In this document: one piece after another, positions 3,848-37,578 of the stretch
Layout: the number at the start of each line of letters is the position of its first letter
Numbering within the stretch: position 1 is the stretch's first letter
From: a virus
Length of the DNA: 37,578 nt
Strand: one strand, 5' to 3'
IMG/VR virus record: IMGVR_UViG_3300028895_000250
The notes under the pieces: model-generated
What the model was told of the DNA's origin: nothing
The model's input: the letters and a program-made list of their open reading frames with translations, nothing else
The model's database searches: none
Translations under genes and position numbers: made by a program

Positions 3848-5916
3848 GCATCATTACTCAGACAAAGATGGCCGTGGCGCAATGGCTGTTCAAGAGTAGC
3901 GGCCTGTCAATCCTTCTCGGCGGATCATCGAAGGGGATCAGCGATACCGCTGTCCGAGGACGGCAAGCATATAAGCGTAACGGATATCTGGCTCGCGGTA
4001 TCAACGTGAAAGCTGACGCGGTGGTTTCTGTACCGCTGAAGGTCTACACGGAGAAGGAGATTGACGGCAAGCCGGAACGCGAGGAAGTGCGCCAGGGTGA
4101 GCTCGTTGATTTGTTGGCCAAGCCTAATCCGCTTATGACATCGAGCCAGTTCTGGCAATCGCACCTCATCGAACATGGCCTGATGGGTAACTCTGTCTGG
4201 TACTTCCCGTCGGAGTTTAACAACAAAAGAATCGTATTGCTGAAGGCCGACGAGTTCAGGGTCAAGCCTACCGACGACGGGTATGATATTGCCGCATATG
4301 AGCGGCTAACCAAATCGGGCTTCACTCCTGTTGATCCGAAGCAGATTATCCATTTCCGCGAGCCGAATCCTTTTGATAAATGGCTTGGCCTGTCGGTTAC
4401 CGAAGTGCTTGTCCGGGCAATCCTGTCGGCATGGTATATCGGCGAATGGAACAACAATTTCTTCAAGGACGGCGCGATACCACCGGGCCTGCTTACGACG
4501 GAACACGCAATTGATTTAGAGAAGGCCAAGACGTACGGCGAGTTGTGGCACGCGCAACATTCCGGCAAAGAGAAGTGGCAGAAGATAGCCGTGATCGGTG
4601 CGGGCCTGAAGTTCGAGCAAATATCCCAGGCGCACAAAGATATGGCGTTCGAGGCTCTATGTCGCTGGGACCGCGAGGAAATTCTTGCCTATCTCGGCGT
4701 ACCTCCGGCGATGGTCGGCGTGATGGAATACGCCAACTATGCCAATGCCGAAGCACAGAAGAAAATGTTCTGGGAATCGACAGTGATGCCGCTCCTTCGG
4801 TACAACGAGTCGGTCATCAACGAGATGCTCATCCCGCGCCTATTCCCCGGCAAGGGCTGGTTTGTCGAGTACGACACCTCGAACGTCAAAGCCCTGCAAG
4901 ACGACGCCGATAAGAAGGCCGCACGTGACCAGATATATGTCAACACCGGAGTTCTGACGGTGAATGAAGTCCGGGCCGACATGAACCGCGAGCCTGTCGA
5001 TTGGGGCGACGAACCGCCCAGCGGTGGCGGATCACTTGCTGGCCTGCTGTCCGGTGAAACCCCGGCGATGTTCAAATCTCTTGAGCAAAAGGACGACCCG
5101 GAAGTCGAGGCGCGCAAGGCTCTCTGGAAAGCATTTGACCGCAAGCTGACCATGCGAGAATCGAAGTTCGCCAAGATCATGCGGGATTACTTCATCGACC
5201 AGAAGAAACGGCTACTGGCGGCAATCGAGGGCGAATATAAGTCAATCAAAGAGCCGCCCCGGCCAATCAACGTCGAGGAAATCATGGCCCTGTTTGTGGC
5301 CGCCTACGAAATGCTGAAGCTACAGGAAATGACCACCACGACCATATCGGATATCCTGTCGATGGCGGGCAAGGAAGCAATCGACAAGCTGGGCGTGGAC
5401 GTGGCGTTCGATCTCAGCCATCCGGCGGTAATTGACGGGATAGTTGATCATCTTAAAAATCCGACGTTAAAAGATTGGGTAGATCAATTGATGCTCAATA
5501 TGGCAGCTAAAGTTACAGACGAAAGCCAAAGCGCACTAAAAAGATTACTATCAAATGCAGTCGATAATGGTGATTCAATTCAAGAAATATCGAAACAGAT
5601 CGGCGAGATGTTTGACGGATTTGCGGACTATCGGGCGACTCGCACTGCGAGGACCGAGGTTATATCTGCCCATAATCAAGGGGCATTATCTGGATATGTT
5701 CAGTCAGACGTTGTCGAGGGTAAGGAATGGTTGTCTACGTTAGACGGCGAGACAAGAGAATCACACGCTGCCGCTAACGGACAGGTAGTTGATGTTGGTG
5801 CGCATTTTAGCGTTAGCGGAATATTAGTGCAATATCCCGGCGATCCCGGCTTACCGCCAGAAGAAAGAATCAATTGCCGGTGTACTGTGTTGCCGGTCAA
5901 AAAGGAAACGGAATGA
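3844..5916 (+). CDS. Portal protein (HK97-family-like) fused to a C-terminal Mu F / SPP1 gp7-like head morphogenesis domain
   Basis: ATGA overlap with terL. The first ~400 aa are portal-like by position and length. The C-terminus carries RTARTEVISAHNQG...EWLSTLDGETRESHAAANGQ...INCRCTVLP, a MuF hallmark. Confidence 0.85.
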   Translation: MSIITQTKMAVAQWLFKSSGLSILLGGSSKGISDTAVRGRQAYKRNGYLARGINVKADAVVSVPLKVYTEKEIDGKPEREEVRQGELVDLLAKPNPLMTSSQFWQSHLIEHGLMGNSVWYFPSEFNNKRIVLLKADEFRVKPTDDGYDIAAYERLTKSGFTPVDPKQIIHFREPNPFDKWLGLSVTEVLVRAILSAWYIGEWNNNFFKDGAIPPGLLTTEHAIDLEKAKTYGELWHAQHSGKEKWQKIAVIGAGLKFEQISQAHKDMAFEALCRWDREEILAYLGVPPAMVGVMEYANYANAEAQKKMFWESTVMPLLRYNESVINEMLIPRLFPGKGWFVEYDTSNVKALQDDADKKAARDQIYVNTGVLTVNEVRADMNREPVDWGDEPPSGGGSLAGLLSGETPAMFKSLEQKDDPEVEARKALWKAFDRKLTMRESKFAKIMRDYFIDQKKRLLAAIEGEYKSIKEPPRPINVEEIMALFVAAYEMLKLQEMTTTTISDILSMAGKEAIDKLGVDVAFDLSHPAVIDGIVDHLKNPTLKDWVDQLMLNMAAKVTDESQSALKRLLSNAVDNGDSIQEISKQIGEMFDGFADYRATRTARTEVISAHNQGALSGYVQSDVVEGKEWLSTLDGETRESHAAANGQVVDVGAHFSVSGILVQYPGDPGLPPEERINCRCTVLPVKKETE

Positions 5917-5978: not shown

Positions 5979-6031
5979 TCCCCGGTTGAGACTGCGTTCG
6001 GAAGGTCGCAGTCCTCACCGGGGATTTTTTT
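5979..6031 (+). terminator. Rho-independent terminator-like hairpin between the portal and capsid genes
   Basis: Outer stem TCCCCGGT/ACCGGGGA, inner stem GACTGCG/CGCAGTC, followed by T7 (6025..6031). Confidence 0.7.
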
Positions 6032-25800: not shown

Positions 25801-25995
25801 TTCTAATATGCGTTCTAATATAGCCGAAATATATTGGTGTAACGTGGTAAATATTGGTACAATTCTTACCCCGTTCTATTGTGGACATTTGCAGTATAAC
25901 TGGTTGTCGTGTATACGGATAAATTAAAAGCGGGTGATGGGAGTCGAACCCGATGTTTCCCGTGAAACACAATCACTTACGGCGCGTTCTAATAT
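25801..25995. other. Candidate attP region with arm-type direct repeats
   Basis: TTCTAATAT at 25801..25809, 25813..25821 and 25987..25995 (12-mer GCGTTCTAATAT at 25810 and 25984). ATATTGGT at 25831 and 25851. AT-rich, and flanks a tRNA-like core next to int. Confidence 0.6.
25929..25951 (-). other. tRNA 3'-end-like fragment (T-loop plus acceptor strand); candidate attP core
   Basis: Minus strand reads GGGTTCGACTCCCATCACCCGCT, which is GTTCGAnTCC-type T-loop followed by a 7-nt acceptor strand and a U discriminator. The upstream half does not complete a T stem or anticodon arm, so it is not a full tRNA. Confidence 0.55.
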
Positions 25996-27049
25996 TTGAT
26001 TGCCCGGGCAGCTTATTAATGGCTTTCTGAAGGTCGGATTGATCTAAATGGCTGTACTGCAATGTTGTTTCGTATCGCTTGTGTCGGGCCAGCTTTTGCA
26101 CTATCGGCAGCGACACACCCGCCCGCACCAGCCGTGTGCAGTAGGTATGGCGCAGGGTATGGATATTGGCACCGTCAATTCCAAATTTCCGATATAACGC
26201 GATTACGCGGCGATACCAGACCTCAGAGAAATACAGGGGATGATTGGTGCCTTTGTCGAAGATATATCGCCCAGCGCGTTCTAATGACCTCAGGACGGCA
26301 GATAATTGGGGTGCCAGCGGTATGGTTTCCGGTGTCCGGCCTTTGGGGGCAAAGCCGGTTTTGGCCGCGATAGTGATTGTCATCTGATCGAAGTTGATAT
26401 CAGACCATTCCAGGTGGATGATTTCCGCCCGGCGAAGTCCGGCCAGATAGCCGATCATGCAAAACTCGCGGTAGGGCGAAGGGAATTTGGTTTCGATGAT
26501 CTTGATTTCTTTTTCGGACAGGGCGCGGATCTGCGGCGTGGCGTTTTTCTTCGGCAGTTTCACTTTCGCCATCGGATTGCGATTGAGCCGACCCTCTTGT
26601 ACCTGCACATTCAGGAAATGGCGTAGCACTTCAAGGTATCGGCGCACGGTAGTTGCTGTACAGGATGAACCTTTCCAGCTTTTGAATTGGTTGATGGACG
26701 CAGGTGTCAGGTCTGATAGGCACAAAATCCCCCGGCTCACGAAATACTGCCGGAGAATTTCTACCCGGCTGTAGTTTGATTTGTGGGTGCTGGCTGTGTT
26801 TTCGGCCGCGGACCGTTTCAGGTAGTCGGTCAAAAGTGATGCCAGTTGACTATCATCTTTCGGCTTATCCTTTTTGTGGGCCTGCTTCCACTGATTAAAG
26901 TATTTGCGGGCTTCCTTTTGCGTGACGATCTTGCGGCCCAGGTCGGCATAGGCGGAAAGTGATATCCATTTATATTTTCCGTCGATATACTCCACGACAT
27001 AGGGATAGACCTTGCCGGCGCCTGTTTTCTTCCAGTGGAGGGATGCCAT
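25973..27049 (-). CDS. int: Tyrosine recombinase / phage integrase
   Basis: LAGLRRAEI (Arg box), HTLRHTYCTRLV (H-x-x-R), TTLQYSHL (catalytic Tyr). N-terminal SAM-like domain. Confidence 0.92.
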   Translation of the reverse strand: MASLHWKKTGAGKVYPYVVEYIDGKYKWISLSAYADLGRKIVTQKEARKYFNQWKQAHKKDKPKDDSQLASLLTDYLKRSAAENTASTHKSNYSRVEILRQYFVSRGILCLSDLTPASINQFKSWKGSSCTATTVRRYLEVLRHFLNVQVQEGRLNRNPMAKVKLPKKNATPQIRALSEKEIKIIETKFPSPYREFCMIGYLAGLRRAEIIHLEWSDINFDQMTITIAAKTGFAPKGRTPETIPLAPQLSAVLRSLERAGRYIFDKGTNHPLYFSEVWYRRVIALYRKFGIDGANIHTLRHTYCTRLVRAGVSLPIVQKLARHKRYETTLQYSHLDQSDLQKAINKLPGQSNIRTRRK

Positions 27050-27477: not shown

Positions 27478-27681
27478 ATGATTCTCCTGTGATTATCATC
27501 TGATTGCTCTTGACAAGAATACCCCTATACTTATATTGGTTTTAATCTGTAACTTGAGGGGCGCACCACGCACGGACCACTACCCCCCCCTACCTGTTGG
27601 CCGGGCAACCAGGTTAAAACCCGACAAGCAACTGGAAGCTGATTTTCAAGATCGGGGTACGGCAGTATGGATGCCGACGAA

Positions 27682-28071
27682 TTAGCCACCACCTTGTTTC
27701 TCCTTTGTATCGAACGCCGCACGAGCCAATTGATCGAAGACCTCATCGTCGGTGAGGTCGTACTTGTCGAGCATCCCGGCCTTACGGAAGTCGGCGATCA
27801 TGGCGTTGCGAAGTAGCTCTTTATACTGATCCGGCGGGTCTTCGCCGGTGAATAGCCAATCGAGGGTCTTGCCGTAGAGCCGGGCGGCCTTCATGGCGAA
27901 ATTGATCTGCGGGTAAGTATCGCCCTTGATCCACGAGCCGACGGTAGTTTCAGAAACCGACTCATCTTCAGAGCACAGCATTTCGGTGAACCGCTTGTTG
28001 ATCCCACCGGCAATGGCGTCCCGAATCTCCGCCAATCGCTTCCCTATCTCTAAAGTCTCCTGATTTTGCAT
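27682..28071 (-). CDS. XRE/CI-like HTH repressor (129 aa)
   Basis: HTH region SETTVGSWIKGDTYPQINFAMKAARLYGKTLDWLFTGE. Divergent from the early operon. The longer track ORF (to 28434) was rejected because its extension crosses the promoter region and overlaps two plus-strand genes. Confidence 0.8.
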   Translation of the reverse strand: MQNQETLEIGKRLAEIRDAIAGGINKRFTEMLCSEDESVSETTVGSWIKGDTYPQINFAMKAARLYGKTLDWLFTGEDPPDQYKELLRNAMIADFRKAGMLDKYDLTDDEVFDQLARAAFDTKEKQGGG

Positions 28072-28147
28072 CGGTTTGAATGTTAAAGAGTTACGCTGTA
28101 TTAGCAAGAAATATTTTATTTTTTTTGCAAATAATATTAAAAATTCC

Positions 28148-28176
28148 TTGACAGAATCCGATAGATTGGATATATA
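28148..28176 (+). promoter_or_regulatory. Early rightward promoter (PR-like): TTGACA-17 nt-TATATA
   Basis: Consensus -35 at 28148..28153 and -10 at 28171..28176, 20 nt upstream of the ATG at 28196, which has an AAGGA RBS. Confidence 0.65.
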
Positions 28177-28195: not shown

Positions 28196-28375
28196 ATGGA
28201 TTTGACATTTAAAAACCGGATTGCCAAATATGGGGAGAAGGCGACCTGCATACCGCTCCCCCATTGGCTCTCGGACCAGCTCCCAATCAACAACGGCCAG
28301 CCGACGGACGGCAAGGCCAAAATTAACAAAGACGGCAAAGTCGAGATCACCATCATCCTGGAACCGGCGGCATAG
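28196..28375 (+). CDS. Small protein in Cro position (59 aa), possibly AbrB/SpoVT-like fold; not in the ORF track (<60 aa)
   Basis: Hand translation: MDLTFKNRIAKYGEKATCIPLPHWLSDQLPINNGQPTDGKAKINKDGKVEITIILEPAA. An RBS is present. It is the first gene after the PR-like promoter, and its TAG stop abuts the next ATG. Confidence 0.55.
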   Translation: MDLTFKNRIAKYGEKATCIPLPHWLSDQLPINNGQPTDGKAKINKDGKVEITIILEPAA

Positions 28376-28552
28376 ATGCCACCGCTGCTGAACAAAAAAC
28401 AGACGGCCAAGCATCTGGGGATCGGCCTGACCACCCTTTATCGCTGGATGAAGTCTGGCGTATTCAGGGTCCCGATGATAGTCGGCACTGGCCGGTACGA
28501 CCAGACCGACGTGGACGCCTGGGTTGAATCTCGAAAGCGTGGTGGCCAATGA
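28376..28552 (+). CDS. Excisionase-family (HTH_17/AlpA-like) DNA-binding protein (58 aa); not in the ORF track
   Basis: Hand translation: MPPLLNKKQTAKHLGIGLTTLYRWMKSGVFRVPMIVGTGRYDQTDVDAWVESRKRGGQ. This is the typical Xis/AlpA pattern. Confidence 0.7.
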   Translation: MPPLLNKKQTAKHLGIGLTTLYRWMKSGVFRVPMIVGTGRYDQTDVDAWVESRKRGGQ

Positions 28553-29033
28553 ATCACCTCCGGCTAAAATTCCTGCCGCTGGCGGTAGGGCTTGAGGTTT
28601 GAAGGTCCGAGCCGGAGGACCGGCGGCAGAAAATATTACGGAGCATTAAATGATTTGTTTGAGTGTAAATAGTAAACCTGCGGAAGGCAACGGCTTGGGG
28701 GGCTTTTCCGCACTGTTGGAAGTTGTCAGGAAAGGAGGCCGCTATGCGGCGGAGGGTCTAAAACCGCCTATACCATCACAGAAACGGTGCAAAAAATATC
28801 TATATGCTAAGGTTTATCCGAACAGCCCCGGCACGAACGGCTCCCGCCGGGGCGTTGAAAAATTCCGCCGACCGACCTCAGGTTGTGTAGACTTCCCCCC
28901 TATAGGAACTCCGCACGGTAACTGCATTAGTCGGTCGGTTTTAAATATCGCATCCTCCCAGGGTGTAACTGGCGGCGGGGTCGCACCGCATACCGGCGGC
29001 CCCGCTATTCATTCGAAAACGAAAGGAGAATCT
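28553..29033 (+). ncRNA. Candidate structured untranslated region / non-coding RNA in the immediate-early transcript
   Basis: 480 bp with no convincing ORF, since the track ORF from 28650 translates to Gly/Pro/Arg/Ser-rich junk. GC-rich with at least 6 perfect 6-10 bp stems, including a pseudoknot-compatible pair (28557..28565/28610..28618 and 28573..28582/28620..28629). Confidence 0.35.
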
Positions 29034-29240
29034 ATGACCAATAACGAACTAACGCACGTCCATTGGGACGGGCAACATGGCGTCAAATACAAAACGGCGG
29101 ACAGTGATCGGGTGTATCTGTTGGCCGTTCGGCCTGCAATGGGTCGGTTGATCATGAATGCCTGGAATACCAAGAACAACAACCTACTCGACGACGTAAT
29201 GAGCGTGCCTTTGAGGGGGGGAACATGTGCAACTTCCTGA
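29034..29240 (+). CDS. Small hypothetical early protein (68 aa)
   Basis: Strong RBS AAAGGAGA 5 nt before the ATG. Protein-like sequence begins only at this point in the long track ORF. Confidence 0.6.
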   Translation: MTNNELTHVHWDGQHGVKYKTADSDRVYLLAVRPAMGRLIMNAWNTKNNNLLDDVMSVPLRGGTCATS

Positions 29241-30046
29241 GCGGCTACTGCACAGAAAAACGGGGCTTGCGGTGTTCGCCGTTTGTAGATAGTCACTCCG
29301 ATCAAATAATCATGTTCGGGGATACTGACCTTGATAGCAAGCTACCGCTGGAAATACTTAAGTGGGAAATTACACCGCCGAGAGATTGGGATAAGTTTTT
29401 TGATTCCTCCGCATGGTATTTCCGCATCGATCAAGACGAAATTCCCTCTTGGGCCGATCCTAAAATGGCTGAACATGATGTGCGAGAATATTTACAGAAA
29501 TTACTTGATGATTGCCCTGATATCGGCGACGAAATTAAAATACTCGACGGTCGGTACATTGCGCTACGCGGTGATGGCGTGGTGACAAAATGCAGCGACG
29601 CTACCTACATTAAATACATTCCGAACAAGGCGACCATCAACGATGCTGGGTCTGCGACCATCAAGTATGCTGGGGCTGCGACCATCAACGATGCTGGGTA
29701 TGCGACCATCAAGTATGCTGGGTCTGCGACCATCAAGTATGCTGGGGCTGCGACCATCAACGATGCTGGGTATGCGACCATCAACGATGCTGGGTATGCG
29801 ACCATCAAGTATGCTGGGGCTGCGACCATCAACGATGCTGGGTATGCGACCATCAACGATGCTGGGTATGCGACCATCAAGTATGCTGGGTATGCGACCA
29901 TCAACGATGCTGGGTATGCGACCATCAACGATGCTGGGTATGCGACCATCAAGTATGCTGGGTATGCGACCATCAACGATGCTGGGTATGCGACCATCGA
30001 CGACAAAAAACATATAAACGGTGAACCAATTGAGGTCACAAAATAA
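29225..30046 (+). CDS. Octapeptide tandem-repeat protein (273 aa): unique N-terminal domain plus ~15.6 x ATI(ND/KY)AG(Y/S/A) repeats; beta-solenoid-like
   Basis: A 135-aa non-repetitive N-terminus runs in frame into the 24-bp repeats, with a stop 40 nt after the array. The repeat resembles the AGYGSTxT octapeptide of ice-nucleation proteins. Confidence 0.6.
   Translation: MCNFLSGYCTEKRGLRCSPFVDSHSDQIIMFGDTDLDSKLPLEILKWEITPPRDWDKFFDSSAWYFRIDQDEIPSWADPKMAEHDVREYLQKLLDDCPDIGDEIKILDGRYIALRGDGVVTKCSDATYIKYIPNKATINDAGSATIKYAGAATINDAGYATIKYAGSATIKYAGAATINDAGYATINDAGYATIKYAGAATINDAGYATINDAGYATIKYAGYATINDAGYATINDAGYATIKYAGYATINDAGYATIDDKKHINGEPIEVTK
29630..30004 (+). repeat. 24-bp tandem repeat array, ~15.6 copies, two unit types, 72-bp higher-order period at the 3' end
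   Basis: Units are GCGACCATCAACGATGCTGGGTAT and GCGACCATCAAGTATGCTGGG(TAT/TCT/GCT). 29822..29893 is identical to 29894..29965. Confidence 0.95.
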
Positions 30047-30086
30047 AACCAGCCCGGTGGTGGCCGGGCCGGATGGAGCAAAAACA

Positions 30087-34774: not shown

Positions 34775-34929
34775 TGAATGCTGGACTTACGGGAATTTTG
34801 GGTTTGTGTCTAATACCACTGATTGTCATCCTATGTTGCGCTGCAACACCGTGGCTTGGTATTGTCGTTCTGATAGTGGCAGCGAGAATATTCTGTAAAA
34901 GGTTTAATGAAAAATATTGTAACGACTAA
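34774..34929 (+). CDS. Small two-TM membrane protein (51 aa); not in the ORF track
   Basis: Hand translation: MNAGLTGILGLCLIPLIVILCCAATPWLGIVVLIVAARIFCKRFNEKYCND. TGATG coupling. Confidence 0.45.
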   Translation: MNAGLTGILGLCLIPLIVILCCAATPWLGIVVLIVAARIFCKRFNEKYCND

Positions 34930-34970
34930 CGCGCAAAAGCGGGGGCAACCGCTGCACTACAGGAGGGTCA

Positions 34971-35189
34971 ATGCCACGATGTCCAAAATGCTGGCAAGGT
35001 GTCGGCACACACGAGCATCCTTGCAGGTCGGATCGTGATGATGGTTGCGTGGACCACCAGCCGTTAATCAAACACGGCGATAGCCAGCTGTGGTGTCCCG
35101 TCTGTGAACGATCATGGGATGACTGGCCTAAATGGCCGCTGAAAGTTAAAAATGCGCTCAAAAAAATAAAAGAAATTCAGGCGCCGTAG
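34971..35189 (+). CDS. Zn-ribbon protein (72 aa)
   Basis: CPKC...CPVC pairs. GGAGGG RBS. Confidence 0.55.
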   Translation: MPRCPKCWQGVGTHEHPCRSDRDDGCVDHQPLIKHGDSQLWCPVCERSWDDWPKWPLKVKNALKKIKEIQAP

Positions 35190-35208
35190 GAGGGCAGGGA
35201 GGGTCACA

Positions 35209-36006
35209 GTGGCAAGGAAACGAATGATCGATCCGGGGATCTGGCGTAACAAAGGAATACTCCGGGTTTCCAGAGACGCACGGCTATTATTTATCGGCCT
35301 GATCACATACGCAGACGATTGTGGGTATGGCGACGCCGATCCGATGGCTCTCCGTGCGTCGATATTTCCAGGTGACAGTGACGTGTCCGATACGGACGTG
35401 GAACGGTACCGTGACGAACTCGTTACGGCCAAGCTGGTCGAAATATCCAACGATCTGTACAGGTTGCCGGGATGGTCAAATTTCCAGAAGATACGTTCTG
35501 ACTACAAGTTAGAAGAAAAGTATAAACAGAGGTGGAACGGACCCGTTACGGACCCGTTACGGCACAGTAACGGACCCGAACCACAATACAATACAAGTAA
35601 AGACAATAAAGACAATACAAGTAAAGAGAAGTGTCGGTCGGCAAAGCCGACCTTCATCATCCCCCAAAACTGGCTTCCTGTTTTTGAAATCCTTTCGTCG
35701 ATAGACGCCCGGAGTTACCGGACTCTCAAATTTGACCAGGACTGGATCGACAGACTGGATGAATTCGCCCAAAAGCTGGATGGCGCTGAAGCAGTGACCG
35801 AGGAAGCGAAGAAATTCAAACACTGGCTCATCGGTCGACTCAGTAACGGCGATGAAAAACGAGATAAGCGACACAACCCCAGGGCGCGGTTTTTAAATAC
35901 CTGGTTGGGCAATGCGGTGAAGTACAAACTGGAAAACGCGGGCGAGGAACAAACGCCGGAGCAGGCTGCGGCTGCGGCGATAGAACGGAATAAGGCCCAT
36001 GTCTGA
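35209..36006 (+). CDS. Replication initiator / replisome organiser-like protein with origin embedded in its linker
   Basis: N-terminal winged-helix-like region (RLLFIGLITYADDCGYG). A low-complexity linker is encoded by the iterons and the AT-rich tract, as in lambda O. Confidence 0.6.
   Translation: MARKRMIDPGIWRNKGILRVSRDARLLFIGLITYADDCGYGDADPMALRASIFPGDSDVSDTDVERYRDELVTAKLVEISNDLYRLPGWSNFQKIRSDYKLEEKYKQRWNGPVTDPLRHSNGPEPQYNTSKDNKDNTSKEKCRSAKPTFIIPQNWLPVFEILSSIDARSYRTLKFDQDWIDRLDEFAQKLDGAEAVTEEAKKFKHWLIGRLSNGDEKRDKRHNPRARFLNTWLGNAVKYKLENAGEEQTPEQAAAAAIERNKAHV
35537..35630. promoter_or_regulatory. Candidate origin of replication: 4 x 11-bp iterons plus AT-rich tract with a 16-bp direct repeat
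   Basis: ACGGACCCGTT at 35537 and 35548, ACGGCACAGTA at 35559, ACGGACCCGAA at 35570. ACAATACAAGTAAAGA at 35588..35603 and 35612..35627. Confidence 0.6.
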
Positions 36007-37122: not shown

Positions 37123-37572
37123 ATGATTGAATTTTTCATCCCAGGTCCGCCGGTTGCACAACAGCGGGCGAAGACGAGAGTAGCCAAAGTTCCGGGCGGC
37201 GGCGTCCGGGTGCTCGGTAAGTATGACCCAGAGAAATGCAAGAACTTCAAAAGCCACGTGGCCGATGTTGCATTTCAGAAAGTCACCGAATGTTACGGGC
37301 CGGACGTACCCATCGCCCTGGACATGGTATTTTTCGTACAGCGACCGGCGTCAGTCACCATCAAGAAACGGCCACTGCCGATCAAAAAACCCGATTGGGA
37401 TAACTTCGGCAAGGGGCCGTCCGATGCAATGGAGACAATCGTCTACCATAACGACAGCCAGGTAGTCGATTGTCGAGTGAGAAAATTCTACGCCGATAAT
37501 CATCCGGTCGGCGCACTGTTGAAAATCGTAGAAGTCAAACCGCAGGAGGTACAAAATGAATTTTCGCTGTGA
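37123..37572 (+). CDS. rusA: RusA-family Holliday junction resolvase
   Basis: PPVAQQRAK...KPDWDNFGKGPSDAME...YHNDSQV is the RusA signature (KPDxDN...D). The gene spans the contig overlap. Confidence 0.85.
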   Translation: MIEFFIPGPPVAQQRAKTRVAKVPGGGVRVLGKYDPEKCKNFKSHVADVAFQKVTECYGPDVPIALDMVFFVQRPASVTIKKRPLPIKKPDWDNFGKGPSDAMETIVYHNDSQVVDCRVRKFYADNHPVGALLKIVEVKPQEVQNEFSL

Positions 37573-37578
37573 TCTGGA
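37435..37578. repeat. Terminal exact direct repeat, copy 2 (identical to 1..144)
   Basis: Compared base by base with 1..144. Confidence 0.97.

Follow-up and report, generated by a model that had tools for sequence, protein, structure and literature searches.

The subject of this analysis is a 481-nt stretch (positions 28553-29033, hereafter the gap) in IMG/VR virus record IMGVR_UViG_3300028895_000250, whose full 37,578 nt we call the window. Lying between two small rightward genes, one for a helix-turn-helix (HTH) protein of the HTH_17 family and one for a 68-aa protein, the gap is most likely an ordinary regulatory spacer, if an unusually long and hairpin-rich one, in an orphan phage lineage. 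The reading that we prefer, and hold tentatively, is that it separates two cistrons of the early rightward operon of a lambdoid-style temperate phage as an untranslated spacer, with hairpins that attenuate read-through or stabilise the transcript in cis. Transcription from an upstream promoter, terminator or attenuator activity and the stabilising role are predicted here from the sequence.

Helices, hairpins and terminator-like sites

Counting maximal perfect Watson-Crick helices with loops of at most 75 nt, and comparing the counts with 1000 dinucleotide shuffles and 308 genome windows, we found six helices of at least 7 bp in the gap, three of at least 8 bp and two of at least 9 bp, against shuffle means of 1.85, 0.45 and 0.12. 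Such counts are reached by 0.7-0.8% of the shuffles and 0-1.3% of the genome windows. Five of the six are independent, as the one at 28871-28939 repeats the 9-bp helix 28868-28876/28930-28938 in a shifted register. The enrichment in perfect helices is real at about the 1% level. The six helices listed in a first-pass annotation of this DNA, read off the sequence, are likewise all present where they had been annotated, and a repeat search recovers helix A, helix B and one more (Table 1).

The annotation had described the region as packed with perfect helices, which is true of the counts, in the top 1% or so, but not of the overall energy. Folding of all 481 nt yields -171.3 kcal/mol, where shuffles average -164.2 +/- 6.6 (z -1.06 for the + and -1.26 for the - strand), and in a genome-wide scan of 150-nt windows those on the + strand of the gap reach z-scores of only -1.5 to -1.75. 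This combination of many helices and ordinary total energy is explained by a three-part anatomy, in which structured GC-rich ends flank an unstructured, AT-richer middle. The 5' part (28553-28635) is 59% GC, and its helix-B window (28566-28640) has a z-score of -3.15. The middle (28636-28819) is 46% GC and folds worse than shuffles (z +1.08 for 28636-28820), whereas the 3' cluster (28820-29010) is 61% GC and holds three stable hairpins (z -3.5 for 28820-28942 and -2.45 for 28968-29010); all these local windows were picked after the stems had been seen, which makes the z-scores somewhat flattering. As to the claim that the gap is GC-richer than intergenic DNA, its average is 53.8%, compared with 51.4% for the genome and 25% to 55% for the other gaps in it, and only the two ends are GC-rich. 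Most of the stems derive from GGCGG/CCGCC, present in nine copies where 2.2 are expected, a fourfold excess. The gap is an example of perfect-stem richness without unusual thermodynamics.

At the 5' end, helices A and B interleave and are therefore mutually exclusive. The fold with A (-32.0 kcal/mol) is 7 kcal/mol weaker than the fold with B (-39.0 kcal/mol), which dominates the 5' module with pair probabilities of 0.78-1.0, while the equilibrium probability of A is essentially zero. By standard pseudoknot stereochemistry, a full A+B pseudoknot of the H type, one of the two arrangements first proposed, would be sterically implausible, because the single nucleotide (28619) linking the 3' arms is too short to cross a 9-bp stem; the stems are 9 and 10 bp long and the 5' arms are separated by 7 nt. 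As a separate observation on the two ends of the gap, CTGGCGGNRGGG has exactly two copies in the genome, each with ACCGGCGGC 23-40 nt downstream (28579-28627 and 28969-29000); ACCGGCGGC alone has four exact genome copies, three of them within 28363-29000.

In the 3' cluster, the first-pass annotation had held that no stem is followed by a U tract, and this does not stand: the arm at 28930-28938 runs into TTTT(AAATAT), and the hairpin at 28974-29006 into (T)ATTCATTC. Of the three hairpins of the cluster, H3, T1 and T2, H3 folds at -20.2 kcal/mol (z -2.5). T1, which includes the 9-bp perfect helix 28868-28876/28930-28938, folds at -30.6 kcal/mol (z -3.7; dG -30.0 in the terminator scan) and has the tail UUUUAAAUAU, with a tail score of 3.71 if U28939 is placed in the stem and about 4.2, by hand calculation, if it is placed in the tail. 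T2 is built on a 6-bp core helix (28975-28980/29000-29005) that can be extended to 11 bp with two G-U pairs; it folds at -23.0 kcal/mol (z -2.45), has the tail UAUUCAUUC with a score of 3.24, and ends 16 nt before the Shine-Dalgarno (SD) sequence of the next gene. Both tail scores (3.71 and 3.24) would presumably pass the default cut-off of TransTermHP. T2 is one of about six compact hairpin-plus-tail sites on the + strand, among which those at 6024 and 25800 are likewise intergenic, following genes that end at 5916 and 25743. T1 and T2 both have the stable GC-rich hairpin of an intrinsic terminator, and their geometry is that of weak intrinsic terminators, for which terminator or attenuator activity is predicted. 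Moreover, G outnumbers C in the first 250 nt of the gap (C/G 0.41-0.76), and the 3' part, which has more C, is base-paired; RNA of either kind would be a poor substrate for Rho loading.

Coding potential and conservation

The gap is most likely untranslated, as judged from codon use, GC content by codon position, amino-acid composition, the lack of homologs and a start codon that is not conserved. The contrary reading concerns an open reading frame (ORF) for 196 aa (28650-29240), which the Joint Genome Institute (JGI) pipeline annotates as a protein on at least eight contigs: it would yield a longer version of the 68-aa protein, extended at the N-terminus by a basic, disordered segment rich in Gly, Pro and Ser. 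For this speak an open frame of 128 codons in phase with the downstream gene, improbable from base composition (P about 0.003), and an ATG at 28650, directly after a stop, with GGAG 6 nt upstream; the ORF has an open frame, a start codon and an SD sequence, and the JGI caller chose it. The codon log-odds of this frame, taken over sense codons only, is nevertheless -0.044, against 0.27 +/- 0.12 for the genes of this phage and -0.29 +/- 0.12 for off-frames; just 1% of gene windows reach a value this low, and with similar values in the other two + frames no frame stands out. GC at the three codon positions is.55/.56/.50 rather than the.55/.42/.59 of the genes. The translation is atypical, with 15.6% Gly, 9.4% Pro, much Ser, 0.8% Asp and no Trp.

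Database searches agree with an untranslated gap. A word-indexed search of 5.8 billion proteins with the 196-aa ORF returns only itself, and two HMMER hits among 1.84 billion representatives are spurious, being giant repeat proteins in which weak repeats were summed. Six-frame translations of the gap have no match in Pfam or PHROGs at E<=1. AlphaFold, run on the single sequence and hence weak evidence, gives a mean predicted local distance difference test score (pLDDT) of 36.7, with 25-39 in the extension and 40-56 in the last 68 aa. The SD sequence at the 29034 start is much better than that at 28650, and the 68-aa gene has gene-like GC values at the three codon positions (.51/.42/.62). We therefore consider translation of the gap very unlikely. 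The first-pass verdict that it holds no credible ORF is upheld, with the reservation that the open frame is improbable by chance and was called by JGI. The public 196-aa annotation is probably wrong; the evidence favours a 68-aa gene at 29034 after a long untranslated spacer.

Within the middle of the gap, a perfect SD sequence is followed by a five-codon ORF (Table 1). AGGAGG occurs in eight copies on the + strand, and six of the other seven precede ORF starts of at least 72 aa; here it may mark a mini-ORF that is translated, or what is left of a gene start. A leader peptide sensing Arg codons was considered here and rejected, CGG being the commonest Arg codon in the phage.

Exact-protein look-ups lead to eight or nine public contigs, all from this phage itself: they are 99.8-100% identical and show no difference in the gap. 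Beyond these, the protein of the nearby cI-like gene has one relative (68% identity), on the 1,514-nt ENA contig L007 (ERZ23498458 / SAMN18200498), which has the same arrangement of cI, 59-aa and HTH_17 genes and ends about 135 nt into the gap, so that the comparison concerns two sequences, the window and L007, over the first 135 nt or so. A MAFFT-based alignment puts 28553-28660 at about 59% identity, with 68% for its first 48 nt (28553-28600); our own realignment with register correction gives about 60-70%. For comparison, the 59-aa gene has 70% identity and the HTH_17 gene 52%. Between 28565 and 28645 the two share the blocks TAAAAT, CTGCCGCTG, GGGCT, GAGCCGGAGG, CCGGCGGCA and TACGG. Indels of 1, 1, 2, 1, 2, 9, 1 and 1 nt separate them, a non-triplet pattern unlike the evolution of shared coding sequence, and ATG 28650 is ACT in L007. 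Helix B keeps eight of its ten pairs in L007, including the G-U, with no compensatory change and with an interior 10 nt shorter (z -1.09). Helix A has an unchanged 3' arm there, and a 5' arm with one broken pair, one wobble and indels. The first half of the bipartite CTGGCGGNRGGG plus ACCGGCGGC motif, which is confined to the two ends of the gap, is lost in L007. As far as two sequences can tell, the comparison indicates nucleotide-level constraint on the 5' module, favours helix B over A and lends no support to the pseudoknot. In L007 itself (54-308, - strand), the HTH_17 ORF is 84 aa long instead of 58 aa and reads through the conserved block.

Further relatives were sought widely. In the databases searched, neither the HTH_17 protein nor the 196-aa ORF nor the 59-aa protein has a relative, and BLAST with the gap DNA gives no match either against 50,697 phage records (in distant mode) or against E. 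coli genomes. Viral-contig scans with the HTH_17 protein, the 68-aa protein, the exonuclease and the 59-aa alignment return relatives of the exonuclease only, with unrelated upstream regions, and a genome scan with the 59-aa alignment returns no match. Pattern scans with the shared blocks gave 0 and then 3 matches in viral contigs, 28 in JGI metagenomes and 43 in 185,579 species genomes, all of which BLAST identified as chance GC-rich matches. One viral contig, L005, carries an exonuclease 82% identical to that of the phage and shares the small gene just upstream of it; further upstream its early module is wholly different, which shows that a mosaic boundary divides the recombination module from the genes near the immunity region.

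Known RNA elements and competing explanations

Searching the whole window against Rfam 15 at gathering thresholds gives no hit, and at E<=10 the gap matches only RAGATH-5 (19.7 bits, threshold 50) and CcsR1 (11.7 bits, threshold 65.3), both on T2. A put-like antitermination element, one of the possibilities first raised, finds no support. We built a put covariance model from putL and putR of phage HK022, located with the guidance of PMC9378689, and six homologs; the alignment has six covarying pairs and an invariant CGAACGGC. In a whole-window search at E<=10 the model has no hit in 28553-29033, and on the gap alone its best score is 2.2 bits. The copy of CGAACGGC at 28834, in the 13-nt loop of H3 and with TCAGG at a put-like distance, is judged a coincidence, the model scoring -0.1 bits at 28822-28870. 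Nor does boxA (YGCTCTTWA with one mismatch allowed) match the + strand of 28553-29033, its matches in the whole window being no more frequent than expected by chance. No N-like antiterminator is found among 20 neighbouring ORFs scanned, in the course of which no dedicated search was made.

Described elements resemble the gap in part. HK022 put RNA binds the zinc-binding domain of the RNA polymerase beta' subunit and suppresses termination without protein factors, and in the case of putR it is found some 270 nt past the start of transcription (PMC9378689). Members of this family are elements of about 70 nt with two covarying stems (I and II) and the invariant CGAACGGC, GG..AGG..GA and CAAT; they lie in early transcripts, at most a few hundred nt past the promoter and ahead of terminators. 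The gap would share with them the position of a cis-acting RNA past a candidate early promoter, and has in common with them the idea of two hairpins and the 8-mer; however, the 8-mer lies in the loop of another stem, and the invariant CAAT and GGAUGA are absent. The cro-cII region of lambda (nutR and tR1) is, like the gap, placed after the first small rightward regulators and before the delayed-early genes; it is untranslated, as the gap is judged to be, and a gating of read-through is proposed for both. It is about 190 nt long, with a Rho-dependent tR1 and boxA/boxB for the N protein, whereas the gap has 481 nt, GC-rich hairpins, no boxA and no recognised N-like protein, in a phage without a separate leftward early operon. 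DicF, one of several phage small RNAs that arise by early termination or processing, is a non-coding RNA from the early dicB operon of the Qin prophage, near the immunity genes, which ends in a hairpin plus U run with read-through downstream. The gap has the same setting, a non-coding stretch in an early prophage operon beside immunity genes with a hairpin and a short U-rich tail towards its end, but matches neither the Rfam DicF model nor any other small RNA family. Repetitive extragenic palindromes and bacterial interspersed mosaic elements (REP/BIME, for example malE-malF) are multi-copy host repeats that stabilise upstream mRNA and modulate relative expression. Like these, the gap has clusters of GC-rich perfect hairpins between cistrons; its hairpins, in contrast, are unlike each other, have no other copies in the phage and none in the genome or metagenome scans.

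In the reading that we prefer, the helix-B hairpin right after the HTH_17 stop, together with H3, T1 and T2, would cause partial termination or pausing, and the hairpins would protect the upstream message. Partial termination would separate the strong immediate-early regulator genes from the weaker or later recombination and replication genes, and the proposal for T1 and T2 parallels tR1 between cro and cII in lambda. Several results weigh against this interpretation. Overall, the gap folds with ordinary energy and about equally well from either strand, and the GGCGG/CCGCC excess could by itself yield helices, with no selection acting on structure. By lenient criteria, terminator-like sites are frequent (56 on the + strand, about one per 670 nt, or 0.7 expected per 481 nt), and a stricter terminator scanner reports none in the gap on the + strand; neither U tract is long (4 U; 5 U in 9), and T1 depends on long-range closure. 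Nor does the reading account for the 128-codon open frame. There is a small chance that the gap is a new kind of self-contained cis-regulatory leader RNA. Helix A would form first and be displaced by B, setting the read-through of T1 and T2; the exchange would perhaps be read out by translation of the five-codon mini-ORF with its perfect ribosome-binding site. Passage from the immediate-early to the delayed-early genes would then be controlled without any protein, by an element that has no sequence relationship with put or nut.

Among the remaining alternatives, it is rather unlikely that the gap is functionless filler, whether a decayed gene, a recombination junction of the immunity and downstream modules, or GGCGG-rich DNA with accidental stems. 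The ordinary overall energy and the motif excess behind most stems are what such DNA would show; both flanking modules are orphans, L005 illustrates mosaic replacement upstream of the exonuclease module, all three + frames have the intermediate codon scores that eroded coding DNA might have, and the genome holds another 434-nt gap (34775-35208). Filler does not fit, however, with a first 90 nt or so as conserved in L007 as the neighbouring genes, with perfect-helix counts in the top 1% of the genome, or with the lack of a protein-family remnant in any frame. Quite unlikely is a structured RNA of an undescribed class with a function of its own, such as a protein-independent antiterminator acting on T1/T2, a DicF-like small RNA released at T1 by termination or processing, or an anti-defence RNA, possibly with a co-transcriptional A-to-B switch. 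The absence of an Rfam hit, a put score of at most 2.2 bits, the missing boxA, the uncompensated decay of helix A in L007, a middle of 185 nt less structured than shuffles and the lack of any homolog in viral, metagenome or genome scans all argue against it, even though perfect helices are enriched, the local modules are significant, and helix A would by geometry be fully transcribed before B can form. The conserved 5' block with its interior of variable length also suits an RNA hairpin better than a DNA site of fixed spacing, and the distance of about 370 nt from the candidate promoter resembles the position of putR (PMC9378689).

An element acting as DNA or from the opposite strand is, in our estimate, very unlikely. 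It could consist of protein-binding inverted repeats, or of helix B plus TAAAAT serving as a leftward intrinsic terminator, which would keep antisense transcripts out of the immunity genes. Read from the - strand, the helix-B hairpin (dG -25.8) runs into UUUUAG, and L007 conserves the T-rich block (AUUUUA); by excess stability, 28801-28950 on the - strand takes second place among 749 windows, and a further leftward terminator-like hairpin lies at 30072-30049. Yet no convincing - strand promoter could be found by eye in 28640-29033, the U run is 7 nt away from the stem in L007, and the G-U pair of helix B kept there would be an A-C mismatch on the - strand, which we count in favour of the untranslated rightward spacer. 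As for a DNA site, the restriction of the bipartite CTGGCGGNRGGG/ACCGGCGGC motif to the two ends of the gap is suggestive, but the first half is lost in L007, the variable spacing of the arms (37 versus 28 nt) is awkward for a dimeric binding site, and the palindrome of the candidate promoter has no further copies in the gap that could act as distal operators.

Genome setting and meaning for the phage

The window is the complete genome of an uncultured temperate phage, with a unique length of 37,434 bp, and derives from the JGI metagenomes 3300017990 and 3300017991. Bases 1-144 recur exactly as 37435-37578, and with this terminal repeat the contig wraps around, which indicates a complete genome that is circular or terminally redundant. 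The features in and around the gap are listed in Table 1. Following the 68-aa gene come genes for a 273-aa tandem-repeat protein, a PD-(D/E)XK exonuclease, a Sak4-like ATPase, a replication initiator and RusA.

Table 1. Features of the immunity-proximal region and of the gap
Feature	Position	Strand	Remarks
Integrase gene	25973-27049	-	
142-aa gene	between integrase and cI-like gene	-	
cI-like HTH repressor gene	27682-28077	-	
Divergent promoter region	between cI-like gene and 59-aa gene		25% GC
Candidate early rightward promoter	28148-28176	+	TTGACA, 17 nt, TATATA; read by eye
59-aa gene	28196-28375	+	
58-aa HTH_17 (excisionase/AlpA-like) gene	28376-28552	+	stop abuts gap; Pfam PF12728, E 3e-9; PHROG 66
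Gap	28553-29033	+	481 nt; judged untranslated
Helix A	28557-28565/28610-28618	+	9 bp, perfect
Helix B	28573-28582/28620-28629	+	10 bp with one G-U; branched interior
128-codon open frame in phase with 29034 gene (JGI 196-aa call)	28650-29033 (ORF to 29240)	+	judged not coding
Small hairpin	28679-28685/28706-28712	+	7 bp, perfect; z -1.0, no better than shuffles
SD sequence and five-codon ORF	28732-28761	+	AAGGAGG, 5 nt, ATG 28744, MRRRV and stop
H3	28821-28857	+	stem GCCCCGGC/GCCGGGGC; 8-bp helix 28825-28832/28846-28853; loop ACGAACGGCUCCC with 8-mer CGAACGGC
T1	28867-28942	+	73-nt extended hairpin, 10-bp GC-rich closing stem, then UUUU, AAAUAU
T2	28974-29015	+	compact 33-nt hairpin, 11 bp with two G-U, then (U)AUUCAUUC
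68-aa gene	SD 29023-29028, ATG 29034, end 29240	+	AAGGAG, 5 nt, ATG; credible start of downstream cistron

The first-pass annotation had placed the gap in the immediate-early transcript. The candidate promoter, read by eye, makes a position within the early rightward transcript plausible: the gap begins about 370 nt past it, ahead of the predicted terminators T1 and T2, the promoter too being a prediction. Our promoter scanner did not flag this site because its rule needs a T at position 6 of the -10 hexamer. An ATCC-N8-GGAT palindrome (28156-28171), unique in the region, lies between the promoter hexamers. The scan reports no sigma-70-like match within the 3' half of the gap, so the downstream genes probably need read-through.

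Several observations concern other parts of the genome. In the interval that separates the 142-aa gene from the 3' end of the cI-like gene, a near-consensus sigma-70-like promoter on the + strand (27510-27537, TTGACA-16-TATATT, 11/12) points antisense into cI, where it may serve an antisense or small-RNA unit that counteracts the repressor. The 273-aa gene contains a 24-nt tandem repeat array of at least 15 copies (29558-30070), and its product is 225 aa long in contig L004; the contigs are otherwise about 99.8% identical and represent the same phage, so that array copy number, and with it the length of the repeat protein, varies in the population. In the short gap after the repeat-protein gene, amid otherwise rightward genes, sits a strong leftward terminator-like hairpin (30049-30072, - strand; 9 bp, 8 of them GC) followed by TTTTATTTTG. 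The next gene probably starts at ATG 30087 (106 aa, the JGI call in L004) and not at GTG 30021. The second long gap in the genome, mentioned above, is directly upstream of the initiator gene (35209-36006). Inside that gene, two 22-nt direct repeats, 24 nt apart (35585-35630), are probably origin iterons, by analogy with lambda O; a replication origin in the 481-nt gap was considered and is unlikely, the iteron-like repeats being found in the initiator gene instead. A tRNA/tmRNA scan of the window finds none.

The lineage is poorly sampled, and its immunity module is essentially without relatives in 5.8 billion proteins. At present the practical value of the analysis lies mainly in annotation. 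If the hairpins of the gap do gate read-through, this phage would have a lambdoid-style early operon that is timed without a recognisable N, Q or put.

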